Positions 1 to 5,521 of a stretch of 5,521 bases of DNA are shown piece by piece (the stretch's first letter is position 1; each line of letters starts with the position of its first letter). A program made the position numbers and the translations under genes. Source of the stretch: a virus (Duplodnaviria > Heunggongvirae > Uroviricota > Caudoviricetes); the IMG/VR virus record IMGVR_UViG_2695420569_000017. One strand, 5' to 3'. The notes under the pieces were generated by a model. It was not told where the DNA came from, ran no database searches, and saw nothing but the letters and a program-made list of their open reading frames with translations.

Positions 1-1631
1 ATCCGGTCCGGCGCGGGGTGTGCGGTGATGTCCACACTCACCGGCTTACCGCTGCCGTTAATCAGGTTCACCGCCGATGTACCTGTCTCCGGCAGGGTAA
101 CCTCACGGTCCAGCGTCAGGGTGCGGGTGGCAGCATCAATGGACAGGACACGTCCGCCGGTCAGGGTCCCGGCATAGTCATTATCACAGATTTCAATAAT
201 GTCACCGGGTGTGTGCCGCAGCCCCTGAGACCCGAGCGTGAAATCCACCGTCTGCGTTTCCAGCAGTTCGGTCTTTATCACCCACAGTCCGGCACGGTGG
301 GCCTGACCGCGGCTGGTACAGCCGAACGCGTCCATCTTCAGCAGGTTGCGTCCGTAGCGCAGTATGGCTTCCGGGTCTTCCACCAGTTCCGTGGAGGTCT
401 GCCAGCCGTTCTGCGGGTCGGTGTAATTCACCTCCACCGCCGTGTGCCGGTCCTTCAGGGCACTGAAGCTGTAGCGGAACCCCACGCCGTTATCATCCAC
501 CACCACATCGCTGTTGGTGTACGGCCACACCACATCCGACAGGCGGTCCTGAACAAACGTCAGCATCTGGCCGTTCCATACCGGCATACAGCGCATCGCC
601 GAGCAGAAATCACTGAGAACATCCCACGCCTTACGCTGTTGTGCCAGGTACGCATTGAAGGTCATCCGCGGCTCGGTGCCCCCGAAGCCATCCGGCACCA
701 TCTGGTCGCAGTACTGCCCGATGGCATACAGCGCCCACTTGTCCACATCCGCCGCCCCCAGACGTTTTCCCATGCCGTAGCGCGGGTGAGTCAGCATGTC
801 CCACAGACACCAGGCCGGATTGTTGCTGTATGCCGGTTTCAGGCTGCCGTCCCAGATACCACTGTACGTGCGTTTTTCCGGGTCATAGTTTGACGGCACC
901 TGGATGATGCGACCGCGGATATGGTAGTTCACCGTCATCTGCTGACCACCAAACTGCTCCGCATCCACCTGCAGCCCCACAATCGCCGTGTTCGGGTAGC
1001 ACTGTTTCACATCGATGATTTCGGTGTATGACGACCAGAGCGTCTTATTCTGCAGCTGGTCTGTGGTGCTGTCCGCCGTCTCCCTGACCATCCGGATGTT
1101 AAAGGGCCGGGGCGGCAGATTCTCCAGAATCACCGACGCCAGGAACTGCGAGGTGGTCTTGCCGTTAATGGTGACATCCTTTTCCGTCATCCATTTACCA
1201 CCACGCTCAAGCTGAATCAGCAGGCGGACAGACGTCGGGTTACGGTCACCCTTTGAGGTGGTCTCCACCAGTGACTGCACCCCGAAGGTAACCCGCAGGC
1301 GGTCAATGTTCGCGGACGTAATGGTGCGCGTCACCGGCTTTGCCTTCGTCACTTCCACGCCCAGTCCGGTTTCAGCTCCGGAGGACTCAAAGCCTTCCGG
1401 TGGTGTCTGCTCCTGCTCCCCGGCACGCCAGACCGCAGTCATACCGTGTATCACGGGATTACCGTCCGTGCCCGTCAGCGGGGTTTTGTTCACCAGAATA
1501 CTCTGCAGGCCTTTCACCGGGCCTTCTATCGGTCCCTCACCAATCGCATCAATCACGCTCATCATCTGCGTGGATTTGAGATTATCCTTCGCCTCACGAG
1601 GCGTGTGTGCCTTACCGCCACCTTTTCCCAT
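1..1631 (-). CDS. J: Tail tip / host-specificity protein J (central tail fibre), N-terminal ~543 codons; 3' end lies beyond the window start
   Basis: Reverse-complement translation from ATG at 1631..1629 gives MGKGGGKAHTPREAKDNLKSTQMMSVIDAIGEGPIEGPVKGLQSILVNKTPLTGTDG..., which matches the N-terminus of lambda gpJ as I recall it. I hand-checked codons around 1551-1568 (QMMSVI). The frame stays open to position 1, which is why the ORF track (stop-terminated ORFs only) does not list it. Gene order after I is as in lambda. Confidence 0.9.
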   Translation of the reverse strand, partial: MGKGGGKAHTPREAKDNLKSTQMMSVIDAIGEGPIEGPVKGLQSILVNKTPLTGTDGNPVIHGMTAVWRAGEQEQTPPEGFESSGAETGLGVEVTKAKPVTRTITSANIDRLRVTFGVQSLVETTSKGDRNPTSVRLLIQLERGGKWMTEKDVTINGKTTSQFLASVILENLPPRPFNIRMVRETADSTTDQLQNKTLWSSYTEIIDVKQCYPNTAIVGLQVDAEQFGGQQMTVNYHIRGRIIQVPSNYDPEKRTYSGIWDGSLKPAYSNNPAWCLWDMLTHPRYGMGKRLGAADVDKWALYAIGQYCDQMVPDGFGGTEPRMTFNAYLAQQRKAWDVLSDFCSAMRCMPVWNGQMLTFVQDRLSDVVWPYTNSDVVVDDNGVGFRYSFSALKDRHTAVEVNYTDPQNGWQTSTELVEDPEAILRYGRNLLKMDAFGCTSRGQAHRAGLWVIKTELLETQTVDFTLGSQGLRHTPGDIIEICDNDYAGTLTGGRVLSIDAATRTLTLDREVTLPETGTSAVNLINGSGKPVSVDITAHPAPDR

Positions 1632-1737
1632 ACAGCCTTCCCCTGAATAAATTAACCGCCACTTGCCATTCCGTACAGAAGTCGGATATCCTTCGCCCGA
1701 AAAGCATGAAACACATTTCTGCCATGCTAAAGAGAAC

Positions 1738-1770
1738 CCCCGGTATCAGCAGATACCGGGGTTTTCTTTC
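1738..1770 (+). terminator. Rho-independent terminator: 10-bp GC-rich perfect stem, 4-nt loop, T-rich tail
   Basis: CCCCGGTATC (1738-1747), loop AGCA (1748-1751), GATACCGGGG (1752-1761), then TTTTCTTTC (1762-1770) on the plus strand. The minus strand has an A-rich leader and only a weak T-rich trailer, so the main activity is expected on the plus strand. Confidence 0.7.
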
Positions 1771-1836
1771 ATGCCCACCGATAATCCTGTTGGTTAAAAC
1801 CGGTAATGGCATAAAAATTCTGAATATCTTCACATT

Positions 1837-1864
1837 TTCACACACTGACTGTGGCGCTTATAAT
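1837..1864 (+). promoter_or_regulatory. Sigma70-like promoter: -35 TTCACA, 16-nt spacer, consensus -10 TATAAT
   Basis: TTCACA at 1837-1842 and perfect TATAAT at 1859-1864, with an A/T-rich upstream stretch (1811-1836, ATAAAAATTCTGAATATCTT). Predicted transcription start is near 1871. The orientation is opposite to the tail operon. Confidence 0.5.
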
Positions 1865-1870
1865 TTCGCT

Positions 1871-1968
1871 GCGTTAGTGTTTTTTTGCCCGAGTAACAAA
1901 AACAACTCCTTAACATTGATCTTCATTTGTCTGTCCCCGCAGCTCCGCGATCACTGCGGGATTTTTTT
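1871..1968 (+). ncRNA. Putative prophage-encoded small RNA (~100 nt) running from the predicted promoter to an intrinsic terminator; identity unknown
   Basis: The promoter at 1837-1864 is followed about 70 nt later by a terminator hairpin and T7 tail (1935-1968). The interval has no start codon with a ribosome-binding site and no ORF. It contains an internal T7 run (1880-1886) and a CA-rich stretch AACAAAAACAAC (1895-1906), an architecture typical of Hfq-dependent sRNAs. Boundaries are predicted, not measured. Confidence 0.45.
1935..1968 (+). terminator. Rho-independent terminator: GC-rich stem followed by a T7 tract
   Basis: CCCGCAG (1936-1942) pairs with CTGCGGG (1954-1960) around an 11-nt loop, followed by A then TTTTTTT (1962-1968) on the plus strand. 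The minus strand has no T-tract after the stem, so read-through from I to J on the minus strand is not blocked. Confidence 0.65.
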
Positions 1969-1973
1969 ATGTT

Positions 1974-2654
1974 TTATCCCTGTCGCCCGACAACCACGAC
2001 CGTTCCGCCCCCGCCTTCATCACGGGTGCTGATGTCCTGGGATATACGGCGGGAGCCAACCAGCATTTCCCCGTAAGGCACCGGCATCGGGTTCCCCTGG
2101 GCAATCATGTTATCCAGCGAGGAAAAGTACGTGTTCTGTCTGCCGTTATCCGTTGCGCGGTAATCCGGTGTTTTTGCCTTCGGGGCCAGCATCTGGGCCA
2201 CTCCGCCCAGAATCATGCTGGCTCCAAGTGAAAACAGCATCGTGGTGGCAGAAAAACCACCGGCTGCCAGGGCTGAACCCCATAACGCCATTGATGCCCC
2301 GGCAGTGAAGAAAGAGCCCACGATGGCTGCCGCCCCCAGCACAATCTGCAGTCCACCCTTTCCGGCCCCGGCCAGTCGCGGCACAATGTGGATGACCGTT
2401 CCCTCACCCAGCTGTTCGTGAAGACGGGCGTACACCGCCTCCGGTGCCGTGTCATCACCGGCAATACGTATCTGGTACCAGCCTTCGTTCATCTGACGGC
2501 GGAATCCGGGCACCTGTAACGACAGCGCCCGGATGGCTTCCGCTGCCGTGTTCACATACAGGCTGAGGCGGCTGCCAAATCGTTGTAAATCCCCGTGAAG
2601 GCAGATGCGGACCAGTGGCGGTGACGCCAGACAGAATGCGTTCGTCGTTGCCAT
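1974..2654 (-). CDS. I: Tail tip assembly protein I (226 aa)
   Basis: ORF-track protein MATTNAFCLASPPLVRICLHGDLQRFG...QNTYFSSLDNMIAQGN...GEMLVGSR closely resembles lambda gpI as I recall it (about 223 aa), including a glycine/alanine-rich hydrophobic core. ATG at 2654 is preceded by the SD-like GAGAGG. The start sits inside the 3' end of K, as in lambda. Confidence 0.9.
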   Translation of the reverse strand: MATTNAFCLASPPLVRICLHGDLQRFGSRLSLYVNTAAEAIRALSLQVPGFRRQMNEGWYQIRIAGDDTAPEAVYARLHEQLGEGTVIHIVPRLAGAGKGGLQIVLGAAAIVGSFFTAGASMALWGSALAAGGFSATTMLFSLGASMILGGVAQMLAPKAKTPDYRATDNGRQNTYFSSLDNMIAQGNPMPVPYGEMLVGSRRISQDISTRDEGGGGTVVVVGRQG

Positions 2655-3295
2655 TTTTCAGAATACCTCTCCCGTTTACTCAGTTGTTCAGGCAGATGGT
2701 GAAGCAGTTCACCGTTGCCACAGTAAATGGCGGCATGATTCGGCACCGATGCGCCAAAGCAGCACAGCAGGATATCGCCTGCCTGTGCAGAGGACGGAGA
2801 CACCCGGCAAAAGCCGTTTTCCGCCAGGTTGTCCAGGTACAGGTTCTGGCCGTTGCGCCACCAGTCATCCTCACGCACAAAATCCGGCAGCGTTATCCCC
2901 GCCAGATGGTAGGCATCCCGGAACAGGGTGTAACAGTCCGTCACCCCGTGCTCAAAGCGCCGTCCCGTCAGGTGCGGCACGCAGCGGAATTTGTGAATGT
3001 CACCCCGGCAGACCAGCCACCAGGGCAGTGCGCTTTTTATCTGCAGCCGCCGGTCAGCCTCGCTCAGCCAGGGCAGCCCACCGGGATGACTGTGGACCAG
3101 TGCCACAATCTCCCCCTGCATCTGTGCCTGCAGCCAGTCTTCCGGTGCGATACGAAAATACGCCTCCGGCTCTGCAGAAATATTCACACAAGGGATATAC
3201 CACTCCCCCTCCGGCGTGCTTATCACGAAGCCGCACGACTCCGCAGGCGCACACCGCCGGGCATGCGCCAGAATCGCTGATTCAGTCTGTGTCAT
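2552..3295 (-). CDS. K: Tail tip assembly protein K (MPN/JAMM-like plus NlpC/P60-like domains), 247 aa from the ATG at 3295
   Basis: The in-frame product MTQTESAILAHARRCAPAESCGFVISTPEGE...VALVHSHPGGLPWLSEADRR...GVTDCYTLFRDAYHLAG...NHAAIYCG matches lambda gpK. It contains a JAMM-type HxH...S..D motif and an NlpC/P60-type Cys (DCYTL) with downstream His residues. The 334-aa track ORF (2552..3556) is an N-terminal over-extension into L. The start at 3295 is the first ATG after the L stop but has a weak Shine-Dalgarno, so start-codon choice is uncertain. Confidence 0.8.
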   Translation of the reverse strand: MTQTESAILAHARRCAPAESCGFVISTPEGEWYIPCVNISAEPEAYFRIAPEDWLQAQMQGEIVALVHSHPGGLPWLSEADRRLQIKSALPWWLVCRGDIHKFRCVPHLTGRRFEHGVTDCYTLFRDAYHLAGITLPDFVREDDWWRNGQNLYLDNLAENGFCRVSPSSAQAGDILLCCFGASVPNHAAIYCGNGELLHHLPEQLSKRERYSEKWQRRTHSVWRHRHWSASAFTGIYNDLAAASACM

Positions 3296-3305
3296 AAACC
3301 GGGAT

Positions 3306-4004
3306 TTACTGCGAAAGTTTATTAATGGAAAGGAAACCGCCAAAATTAGCCACCATGCCGCGCATCTCACACCCGCGCATGCACTTGCTGCATCTGTCCT
3401 TACGGATATCCGTGGTGGGTTTATCGAACTCATCCGCCACAGCCCCGCCCGTGTAACCACACTCATCAGAGCGGTAGGTCCACATACAGGTGTTCGCCAG
3501 CATGATGCGACCGGGAAACAGCGCCCCGTCCGTCTCGGTCGGTGTGGCCAGCACAAACGAGGCTGTCATGGCCGTCAGCTCTGACATCTGCTCCACCACC
3601 CAGCGGTCGCTCAGCTCCTGCTCCGGGTCCGCTTCCGGATTGCCCGCCACAAAATTCACCGCATCCAGAAAACGGGCATACACCCGGCGGCGGACCACCG
3701 TGGCCCCCACCAGGCTCTGCAGGTCCTCCGCCATCCCGGTGACCAGACCAAACAGATTGGACACCGTCAGCGACGGTCTGGCACTGCTGCCCTTCCCGTT
3801 CATCTCAAAGCCACTGCCGTCAATCGGGTATGCCTGGTACTTCCGCCCCTGCCAGGTCACCGGCTCCCCTTTTTCATTCAGCTCATTGCAGAAAAAATAC
3901 CGCTCACCGCCCTGTACCGTCAGGTCGATTTCCCAGAGTACCACCCGCGGTGACTGCTCTGATTTAACCGACTCGCTCAGACTTTCTTCGTGAATATCCT
4001 GCAT
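3306..4004 (-). CDS. L: Minor tail / tail tip assembly protein L (232 aa)
   Basis: ORF-track protein MQDIHEESLSESVKSEQSPRVVLWEIDLTVQGGERYFFCNE... has the same length as lambda gpL (232 aa) and a cysteine-rich C-terminus (CMWTYRSDEC...CSKCMRGC). Its ATG overlaps the M stop (ATGA at 4004). Confidence 0.92.
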   Translation of the reverse strand: MQDIHEESLSESVKSEQSPRVVLWEIDLTVQGGERYFFCNELNEKGEPVTWQGRKYQAYPIDGSGFEMNGKGSSARPSLTVSNLFGLVTGMAEDLQSLVGATVVRRRVYARFLDAVNFVAGNPEADPEQELSDRWVVEQMSELTAMTASFVLATPTETDGALFPGRIMLANTCMWTYRSDECGYTGGAVADEFDKPTTDIRKDRCSKCMRGCEMRGMVANFGGFLSINKLSQ

Positions 4005-4333
4005 CAGTTCACCACCTGCTTAAACTCCGCGCTGAACTCAACGCGCAACATCCCGACCCGCGCAGACCACCCGGCACAGGTCACCTTTATCTGCCGGTAT
4101 GCATAGGGTGGCTTCCACAAAAATGCCTTCCAGCCACCGTGCTCTGCCAGGAACGCTTCCAGATGCCGGGCCTCCTCCCGGGTCACGGAAAGCGTCACCC
4201 TGTATGTTTTCAGGTCAGCATTCAGCCCTGCCGCCATACGCTGTGAGTACCCGTCACCAAAACGCACTTCACGCACCGACGGCTGCGAGTTCACCTCCAT
4301 ATCCGGCTTCACTTTCCAGCGAAAGGTTTTCAT
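4004..4333 (-). CDS. M: Minor tail protein M (109 aa)
   Basis: ORF-track protein MKTFRWKVKPDMEVNSQPSVREVRFGDGYSQRMAAGLNADLKTYRVTL... has the same length as lambda gpM (109 aa) and sits between H and L. Its ATG at 4333 overlaps the H stop (ATGA). Confidence 0.9.
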   Translation of the reverse strand: MKTFRWKVKPDMEVNSQPSVREVRFGDGYSQRMAAGLNADLKTYRVTLSVTREEARHLEAFLAEHGGWKAFLWKPPYAYRQIKVTCAGWSARVGMLRVEFSAEFKQVVN

Positions 4334-5521
4334 CCACCGCTCCCTGATAACATACCGCCATCACGCAACTGCAGCCGGAGTTCATCCTGTGCCCCCTTGC
4401 GGGCCATCTCATACACCGCTTTCATCAGCTGCGGCCCTGCCCGCCCGTTGGGGCCGTCGTTCTGAATCACCACGTGATTGTTCTGATTAAAATTAATGCC
4501 TTCCGCCCGCCGCATCTGCGCCGGACTTCCGGCACCGCCGACATAACCACCTTCCGCATAGCCCCGCATCAGGCGGTACAGATTGCCGACACCAATCCGG
4601 CTGGTCGCCTCCTTCGTGAAGACAAACTCCCCGCGATGAACAATCCCCGCAGGTTCATATTTACCCCCCCGTCCCCGTAAATCCCCCGGTCGCGAAATGG
4701 AAGTTCGCCGCCGCAGCCTGAATGGCCGTCCCCGTGGAGGCAGACGCACCACCACCGAAAGTACCGCCAATGGCGCTGCCGATACTCCCGACTATCCCCA
4801 CCATCGCCTGCTTCAGAAAAATCTCTGTCAGCATGGACAGCACAGAACGGGTGAAACCACGCCAGTTCTGTTCGCTGCCGGTCAGCATCGCTGCCATATT
4901 CTGTGCAATACCGTCAAAGGTCTGCGTGGCCGCGTTTTTAACCTGCGAAAAACTGTCCGTCGCACTTTCCGCCCACTCGCCCCAGCCGGACTTCATCCCG
5001 GCCATCCAGCTTCCACGAAGCTGCTCCTCCGCAGACCAGGTGTTCTTCAGTGCAGATGTGGCCTTCGCCAGCGCAGCCGGATTATCACCGTACACCTCAC
5101 GAAGGCGCTGCTCTTCCGACTCCCGCTGCGCCTGACGGTCGGTGAGTCCGCGGGCTTTTGCGCTGATTGCCGCCTGCTTCGCGCTCTGCTGCTGTTCAAA
5201 CCGCGCCGCCTGCTGTGCCAGCTCATTCAGCCGCTTCTGGTGTTCAATCTTGTCTCCCAGCTCAGCCAGCTGGCGTTTGTACTCCAGCGTCTCTTTCTCA
5301 TGAGCCAGCAGGGATTTTTCCTGCTCAGATAACTGCCGTTTCGTGGCGGCCTCTTTCAGGACCACATACTGATTTTCCGCTTCCCATAAATCCCGGCGCT
5401 GCTGGCTGATTTTCTCATTCACACCGCTGTGTTTTTCCAGCGTCCTGAGCTCGGTTTCAAGCGCCAGCATGGCTGCATGCGCCCGGTCTTCCTGGCGCTC
5501 ACCGGCAGACACCTTCACACC
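4330..5521 (-). CDS. H: Tail tape measure protein H, C-terminal portion (5' end beyond window); reading frame interrupted by an apparent +1 frameshift in a G7 run at 4664-4670
   Basis: Two adjacent minus-strand ORFs in different frames (4661..5518 and 4330..4770) together reproduce the lambda gpH C-terminal region: ...ATGGFTGTGG ends at a stop in one frame and GGKYEPAGIVHRGEFVFTKEATSRIGVGNLYRLMRGYA... continues in the other. Removing one G from the G7 run (C7 on the plus strand) restores ...FTGTGGKYEPAGIV.... The upstream part is Q/E/K-rich and coiled-coil-like, typical of tape measure proteins. Confidence 0.8.

Follow-up and report, generated by a model that had tools for sequence, protein, structure and literature searches.

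The I-J tail gene spacer of a lambdoid prophage very probably carries the gene of the Hfq-dependent small RNA PasB

Reading of a 5,521 nucleotide stretch of viral DNA (the window) had suggested that positions 1837-1968 of the plus strand encode an independently transcribed, Hfq-binding prophage small RNA of about 100 nt, lying between two tail genes and opposite to them. The locus raises the question of whether a promoter-like and a terminator-like sequence that close together delimit a real sRNA gene, and if so, which RNA it is and how that RNA is likely to act.

Gene setting of the module

Comparison with PHROG profiles revealed that the window represents the distal part of the tail genes of a lambdoid prophage and that every gene in it is on the minus strand. 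The genes are:

1-1631, minus strand: 5′ part of J, the tail tip / host specificity gene (phrog_31 and phrog_1727, E = 0; annotations at homologous loci)
1631-1629, minus strand: start codon of J; the first 543 codons are present and the rest runs off the window
1974-2555, minus strand: tail assembly gene I (phrog_32, E = 1.9e-69; RefSeq annotations at homologous loci)
2552-3295, minus strand: K (PHROG profile)
3306-4004, minus strand: L (PHROG profile)
4004-4333, minus strand: M (PHROG profile)
4330 to the window end, minus strand: tape measure gene, in two frames (PHROG profile)

The spacer between I and J is 342 bp long, and the promoter-RNA-terminator module is located in its I-proximal half on the plus strand, with the stop codon of I 6 nt past the U-tract of the RNA. 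The placement in the I-J spacer and on the opposite strand was thus correct, and the names of both flanking genes are those given by the PHROG profiles.

Two further features of the window concern its tail genes. The tape measure gene is divided between ORF 4664-5518, corresponding to positions 648-942 of phrog_24, and ORF 4333-4770, corresponding to positions 938-1055, and a stop codon is also found at the very edge of the window in this region (4330-5521, minus strand); the split reflects either a frameshift in a defective prophage or a sequencing error. The window is also mosaic: positions 1-4020 are ~95.8% identical to the prophages of O157 644-PT8 and Sakai Sp12, and this similarity stops at 4020, at the L/M boundary.

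Promoter, terminator and predicted transcript

The elements of the module, all on the plus strand, are:

1811-1836, plus strand: A/T-rich block CATAAAAATTCTGAATATC, upstream of the -35 hexamer
1837-1842, plus strand: -35 hexamer TTCACA (promoter scan)
1859-1864, plus strand: -10 hexamer TATAAT (promoter scan; spacer of 16 nt)
1871-1968, plus strand: predicted primary transcript of 98 nt, with its start placed from the -10 position
1886-1968, plus strand: PasB as published, 83 nt (Table S6 of PMC8550237 mapped onto the window)
1895-1906, plus strand: A-rich stretch AACAAAAACAAC, (A-R-N)-like, read from the sequence
1904-1924, plus strand: single-stranded core AACUCCUUAACAUUGAUCUUC, unpaired in the alignment consensus and centroid folds
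1936-1968, plus strand: intrinsic terminator (consensus scan, RNA folding and alignment consensus fold)

The predicted promoter, TTCACA-16-TATAAT (1837-1864), was recovered by the consensus scan with 11 of 12 positions matching, and is the best of three promoter-like sites in the window at a threshold of 9/12, at which shuffled sequence yields a mean of 1.8 such sites. The A/T-rich block in front of it may be an UP-like element or the site of a regulator.

The GC-rich hairpin with seven Ts was likewise found where it had been placed. The scan, for which 4.2 terminator-like sites are expected in shuffles, located a hairpin at 1944-1960 followed by ATTTTTTT; RNA folding gave a better stem of 7 bp, CCCGCAG (1936-1942) with CTGCGGG (1954-1960), around an 11-nt loop, and A1961 and then T7 at 1962-1968 lie directly 3′ of this stem. 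On the minus strand the same hairpin is followed by GACAGACAAAUG and has no U-tract, so it would terminate plus strand transcription only and let the tail mRNA pass.

The hairpin and U-tail are the presumed site for the proximal face of Hfq, and the A-rich stretch at 1895-1906 is a candidate contact for its distal face. The fold of the whole molecule is not more stable than those of shuffles (z = -0.9), which is normal for a largely unstructured sRNA yet gives no independent support. Within the single-stranded core, AACUCC(UU) is similar to the 3′ end of 16S rRNA and complementary to GGAG, the Shine-Dalgarno core; the core of the RNA is likely to be the base-pairing (seed) region.

The module corresponds to PasB

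PasB (E2348CN_0006) is an sRNA of prophage PP6 in EPEC O127:H6 strain E2348/69 (Pearl Mizrahi et al., Sci Adv 2021, PMC8550237), where it occupies 83 nt on the minus strand of NC_011601.1 (1466343..1466261), between E2348C_1436 and E2348C_1437 (Table S6, PMC8550237). The Northern probe used for it, AATCCCGCAGTGATCGCGGAGCT (PMC8550237), has an exact match to positions 1941-1963 of the window on the minus strand, and the RNA that it targets is therefore one of the plus strand. The reference PasB of E2348/69 and the window are identical at 82 of 83 nt, and alignment of promoter and RNA together with PP6 revealed a single difference, A1912 in place of C, which is position 27 of PasB. At its 3′ end the RNA carries a U-tract of seven residues, the length also given in Table S5 of PMC8550237, where an intrinsic terminator of this kind calls for at least four.

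The PP6 locus is itself an I-J spacer, with the same synteny and strand as in the window, antisense to the tail genes. The two loci thus share the promoter, RNA body and terminator (bar the one base) and the position between I and J, and they differ in the J-proximal half of the spacer, which is longer and of different sequence in the window, with 187 bp to the upstream block of PasB compared with 93-94 bp in the short type. We conclude with high confidence that the module at 1837-1968 (plus strand) is the gene of PasB, an Hfq-dependent prophage sRNA, in an allele that differs from that of E2348/69 at position 27. A variant named PasB-2, also differing from PasB at position 27, is described in a preprint (Zhu, Shabalina and Storz, bioRxiv 2026, 10.64898/2026.05.13.724894), and the window allele with A1912 would fit this variant.

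The 5′ end can be placed in two ways. The only credible promoter predicts a start at ~1871 and an RNA of 98 nt; counting 83 nt back from the last U (1968) puts the published 5′ end at 1886. The start near 1871 in the original prediction therefore agrees with the position of the TATAAT box but lies 15 nt upstream of the 5′ end drawn from published read coverage. The 5′ end may lie between 1871 and 1886, with the transcript processed or one of the two estimates off, and PasB may be a 98-nt primary transcript with or without trimming at its U-run.

EcOnc22, EcOnc23 and EcOnc24 of EHEC Sakai are alleles of PasB

EcOnc22, EcOnc23 and EcOnc24 are Hfq-CRAC peaks on the plus strand of the Sakai prophages Sp15, Sp14 and Sp11, respectively (Tree et al., Mol Cell 2014, PMC4104026). 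On Northern blots EcOnc22 ran at 'about 85 nt', and in delta-hfq it was 'destabilised' (PMC4104026). In the current Sakai record the coordinates of all three fall in the I-J spacers of Sp15, Sp14 and Sp11. As the coordinates of Tree et al. refer to NC_002695.1, the shift to NC_002695.2 was estimated from two fixed RNAs, HnrS (by its mazF-complementary 15-mer) and AgvB (by its Rfam match), and is ~ +130 to +145 bp in the 1.9-2.9 Mb region; with this shift applied, the Hfq-CRAC peaks fall in the RNA body. Used unshifted, the coordinates in Table S2 of Tree et al. 2014 misplace the EcOnc peaks in NC_002695.2.

The EcOnc22/23/24 probe, which starts GGGAGAGAACGATGAAGATTAAC, has an exact minus strand match in each of Sp11, Sp14 and Sp15, immediately 5′ of the shared terminator, and no match in the window or in Sp12. 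EcOnc22-24 and the window have in common the -35 hexamer, the terminator stem with U7, the AACUCC/AAUCUUC core, the place and the strand. They differ in the -10 hexamer (AATAAT in EcOnc22-24), in the terminator loop (CTCCGCTAACT in EcOnc22-24), in the 5′ third of the RNA and in the bases just before the terminator, and the EcOnc22-24 RNA is 7 nt shorter. From the equivalent start, the Sp11-type module is predicted to give a 91-nt RNA, compared with the ~85 nt observed.

EcOnc22/23/24 are thus a ~77-79% identical allele of PasB at the same place, a link that is not stated in the 2021 paper (PMC8550237) or in the 2026 preprint. Since both are alleles of one family at one position, the Hfq-CRAC, Northern and RIL-seq data obtained for them can be pooled. 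Sakai Sp12 carries an identical copy of the window module; Tree et al. list 63 Hfq-CRAC peaks, and this copy is not one of them (PMC4104026).

Published behaviour of the RNA

PasB was found by RIL-seq and confirmed by Northern blot, and its stability is Hfq-dependent (PMC8550237); in the comparison of wild type and delta-hfq its log2 fold changes were -6.8 and -2.4 (PMC8550237). Thirty-seven RIL-seq interactions were recorded, 30 of them with a CDS or 5′UTR, and PasB takes the second position in ~99-100% of its chimeras; chimeric fragments numbered 258 under activating and 1820 under non-activating conditions (PMC8550237). Its baseMean of 482-1082, compared with 2-27 for the flanking tail genes (PMC8550237), indicates that PasB is made from its own promoter in lysogens.

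These data bear out an independently transcribed, Hfq-binding prophage sRNA close to the predicted ~100 nt, with Northern bands of 83 nt for PasB and ~85 nt for EcOnc22-24. The link to Hfq holds for both alleles, through crosslinking or co-purification together with loss of the RNA in delta-hfq. The existence of the RNA, its approximate size, its Hfq dependence and its many Hfq-mediated partners are accordingly published for a near-identical allele, the PasB experiments having been done on the E2348/69 allele, which differs from the window by one base. Its exact start site, its seed, the direction of regulation and any physiological role are inferences.

A literature search on PasB returned two papers only, with no validated target and no phenotype reported. 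PasB had already been described, with its discovery in 2021 and a survey of its distribution in 2026 (Zhu, Shabalina and Storz, bioRxiv 2026, 10.64898/2026.05.13.724894), and its rediscovery adds no new biology. New here are the equivalence of PasB and EcOnc22-24, the catalogue of variants and a few side observations in the spacer. A reading based on sequence only had nevertheless recovered a true Hfq-dependent sRNA gene.

Distribution and conservation

The module was found in 1612 of 5426 complete E. coli genomes, in 147 phage records and in more than 120 viral contigs, a recurrence far beyond chance. The 301 bases around it match E. coli genomes and Stx-converting and other lambdoid phages, always adjoining 'tail assembly protein I'. 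Among divergent I-J spacers, homology begins at ~1811, just upstream of the -35 hexamer (matches cover positions 112-301 of the query).

Viral contigs carrying the terminator provided a set of 129 copies with 38 distinct variants. The commonest allele among these copies is that of the window (35 copies), and the E2348/69 allele is present 12 times. Upstream of the promoter, the motif TCTGAA (1820-1825) and A1814 are invariant in the 38 variants, and most of the A/T positions flanking TCTGAA are kept in at least 70-90% of them. The -35 hexamer TTCACA is invariant (38/38). The -10 hexamer occurs as TATAAT, GATAAT, AATAAT, TATCAT and once as GATAAA, with positions 2 and 6 invariant or nearly so. 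Just 3′ of it the block CGCTGCGTTA is conserved, and CTGCGTTA, also just 3′ of the -10, is invariant or nearly so. In the RNA body, AACUCC and AUCUU are kept in nearly all variants, as is the terminator; the A-rich character of 1895-1906 is kept in all of them while its sequence varies. The variable parts are the U-run, which has 6-9 U and shows 1-nt indels, the segment from it to the A-rich stretch, and the nucleotides immediately 5′ of the terminator.

RNAalifold on the variants gave the terminator as the sole consensus structure. No covariation was seen in the terminator stem, which is fixed by the pattern used for collection and invariant in the 38 variants, and a 5′ hairpin between the U-run and the A-run is not a consensus structure in the variant alignment. 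Rfam searches at permissive thresholds gave no family for the window, nor for the E2348/69 and Sakai loci; a weak match to snoRNA sR28 (E = 0.8, 1531-1569) was dismissed as noise. As Rfam has no model for the PasB family, the gene is unannotated in ~30% of complete E. coli genomes.

Among species-representative genomes, the PasB terminator was found in two only, both times on a short contig: NZ_JBHTEB010000006.1 of Streptomyces flavalbus (3408 bp), which shares 95.7% identity with the window across 3.1 kb, and NZ_FWPT01000051.1 of Parendozoicomonas haliclonae (460 bp), 81% identical over 446 bp. Both contigs are most likely contamination with E. coli prophage DNA.

Open reading frames across the module

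The claim that no ORF lies between promoter and terminator does not hold, as the interval is crossed by a plus strand ORF (1607-2032) and contains a minus strand ORF of 22 codons (1926-1858). A protein-coding frame conserved across homologues, which would have spoken against an RNA gene, was sought and is absent, neither strand's ORF being conserved. The minus strand ORF (MKINVKELFLLLGQKNTNAAKL) is antisense to PasB and its stop codon overlaps the TATAAT box; where G replaces T before TATAAT, the frame extends to 41 aa.

The conserved sequence could alternatively reflect a small protein of 22 aa encoded on the tail-operon strand (ATG at 1926, MKINVKELF...). The ATG is preceded by GGGGA or GGAG at 6-7 nt in most variants, the frame is open to a common C-terminus, ...NVK(S/I)FRNFIPS, in two divergent groups and reaches 39-41 aa in some relatives, and it has been annotated automatically as 'hypothetical protein' in phages PhiR12_1 and ASU11. 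The variants themselves make this reading very improbable. The start codon is absent from 7 of the 38, the peptides range from 10 to 41 aa and have unrelated tails owing to the 1-nt indels in the U-run, and in the two commonest alleles a stop codon overlapping the TATAAT box ends the peptide at 22 aa. Variable columns number 8/20, 14/20 and 15/20 at codon positions 1, 2 and 3, so that the second position is as variable as the third. The N- and C-terminal stretches that look conserved in the peptide are encoded where the sRNA core and the promoter lie, and a PHROG profile search gave no match. The plus strand ORF 1607-2032 is broken by the same U-run indels. On the indels, the lost ATG, the codon-position variability and the lack of a PHROG match, a small protein was rejected for either strand.

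The locus, as identified here, and its variants therefore present a conserved promoter, core and terminator and no conserved coding frame. This is the canonical architecture of an Hfq-dependent trans-acting sRNA, with its own promoter, an unstructured seed, a Rho-independent terminator with U-tail, and no conserved ORF.

Proposed mode of action and alternatives

The best-supported account of PasB is that of a trans-acting, Hfq-dependent sRNA which pairs through its unstructured core. PasB has a sigma-70 promoter of its own and is transcribed within the I-J spacer, opposite to the late tail operon, up to the intrinsic terminator that lies six bases short of the I stop codon. Lysogens accumulate it as an RNA of ~83-98 nt while the adjacent tail genes are almost silent, and Hfq stabilises it, presumably via the 3′ hairpin/U-tail and the A-rich stretch. 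The AACUCC...AUCUUC middle most likely pairs in trans with the 5′UTR or early coding regions of mRNAs from the core and accessory genome. As AACUCC is complementary to the Shine-Dalgarno sequence GGAG, translational repression is the most probable outcome, and this complementarity would fit the predominance of CDS and 5′UTR partners. In the preprint by Zhu, Shabalina and Storz (bioRxiv 2026, 10.64898/2026.05.13.724894), a seed located 'just upstream of the terminator' is proposed. The AACUCC...AUCUUC core offers a concrete region for mutation.

Because the RNA lies opposite the tail operon, its main role could instead be in cis, by pairing with the I-J spacer of the late tail mRNA or by collision of its transcription with late transcription. 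After induction, this would reduce or uncouple the expression of J; alternatively, it would clear away leaky tail transcripts in lysogens. Full complementarity to the tail mRNA follows from the geometry, the promoter faces the late operon, and the same single position in the tail operon is kept in all three spacer architectures (described below), in phage and prophage records alike. However, PasB ends more than 240 nt from the start codon of J here and ~150 nt from it in the short spacer type, and at this distance it cannot mask the ribosome-binding site of J. Where PasB is abundant there is hardly any tail mRNA (baseMean 2-27, PMC8550237), the 37 trans partners in RIL-seq are mostly CDS or 5′UTR (PMC8550237), and a pure antisense RNA would need neither a conserved unstructured core nor Hfq. 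Given the distance from the J start and the near absence of tail mRNA, a cis-antisense action is possible but not favoured, and we consider it unlikely to be the main role.

That PasB serves mainly as a sponge (anti-sRNA) for another sRNA, like AgvB and AsxR, has a precedent in the same prophages, and one of its RIL-seq partners is the region next to PasA (19 chimeras, PMC8550237), with a possible 8-bp match between GUCUGUC in PasB and GACAGAC in the PasA-adjacent region. RNAduplex proposed an implausibly long structure for this pair, of which only the local 8-bp match is credible. Against a sponge, PasB has no sequence or structure relation to AgvB or AsxR by Rfam, and 30 of the 37 partners are CDS or 5′UTR with none counted as an sRNA (Table S5, PMC8550237); we regard this role as improbable. 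A chance pairing of promoter-like and terminator-like sequences that yields no transcript might be suspected, since consensus scans alone give false positives at the shuffle rates quoted above. This is refuted by the published Northern blots, Hfq-CRAC and RIL-seq on two alleles, one of them near-identical to that of the window, and promoter and terminator are moreover conserved across the 38 variants, so that its probability is practically negligible.

Comparison with other prophage sRNAs

The Rfam models RF02702 and RF02703 (AgvB, AsxR) had no match in the window at E <= 1, whereas the AgvB model scores 96.5 bits in Sakai Sp10 as a positive control; identity with these anti-sRNAs was rejected for lack of a match. 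AgvB and AsxR are like PasB in being prophage-encoded and Hfq-binding (Tree et al. 2014, PMC4104026), and unlike it in occupying a moron site downstream of PR′, in their length of 51-60 nt and in acting as sponges (PMC4104026).

HnrS (EcOnc10/11/12), which represses hha, resembles PasB in being multicopy, Hfq-associated and located in EHEC/EPEC lambdoid prophages (PMC13502914), and also in its expression in lysogens and in having an unstructured seed with a terminator 3′ of it (Poudyal et al., PLoS Pathog 2026, PMC13502914). It was considered as a candidate on account of its several copies (Sp9, Sp10 and Sp12) 'within late genes', and was ruled out by locus and sequence: HnrS is 66 nt long, lies between the lysis and terminase genes and is unrelated in sequence to the window. 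The window lacks the 15 nt of HnrS that are complementary to the 3′ end of mazF; in Sakai Sp12 this 15-mer is found at another locus.

Other elements of the I-J spacer

The J-proximal part of the spacer was found in three architectures, of 93-94 bp, 186-187 bp and 272 bp. In the window it contains one further structured element:

1730-1769, both strands: strong hairpin with a perfect 10-bp core (1738-1761) and an A-tract/U-tract (scan and fold)

This hairpin, which has the look of an intrinsic terminator acting in both directions, is located between J and the PasB promoter, outside PasB, and is followed by TTTTCTTTC; the fold of 1699-1770 has an energy of -31.9 kcal/mol (z = -7.0). A weak promoter-like site, TTGCCA-18-TATCCT (1663-1692, plus strand; 9/12), lies upstream of it. 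Positions 1699-1769 (plus strand) could represent a second RNA of ~70 nt, or a bidirectional terminator insulating J from PasB; neither the literature nor Rfam gave support for a second RNA upstream of PasB (1663-1769, plus strand). The 177-bp segment was found in 13 phage records only, all more than 99% identical.

The 272-bp type is represented by four phages (L014, 9809-10271, minus strand; L021; L041; L102), in which an extra cassette stands in tandem with PasB. It has a TCTGAA..TCTTCACA block as in PasB, a body with CAACTCCTTAAGG, the core CAACUCCUUAAGG and a terminator CTCCCG...CGGGAG with T6; no convincing -10 hexamer was seen in the cassette of these four phages.

These architectures suggest the tentative, and on balance doubtful, idea that the I-J spacer is a modular slot for sRNA cassettes, comprising the PasB/EcOnc alleles, the tandem cassette and the possible RNA at 1699-1769. 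If true, the AACUCC core, which resembles an anti-Shine-Dalgarno sequence, would mark a family of prophage RNAs that reduce translation of mRNAs from the host or from rival phages.

In the short spacer type, a hairpin CAGGCACCC-CGGA-GGGTGCCTG lies between PasB and J (2195-2254 in L008, Sakai Sp11), and it is also present in Sp14, Sp15 and PP6 of E2348/69. Its U-tract, UGUUUUCU, is on the tail-sense strand only, so the hairpin looks like an intrinsic terminator just before J, which Q-antiterminated transcription presumably reads through.
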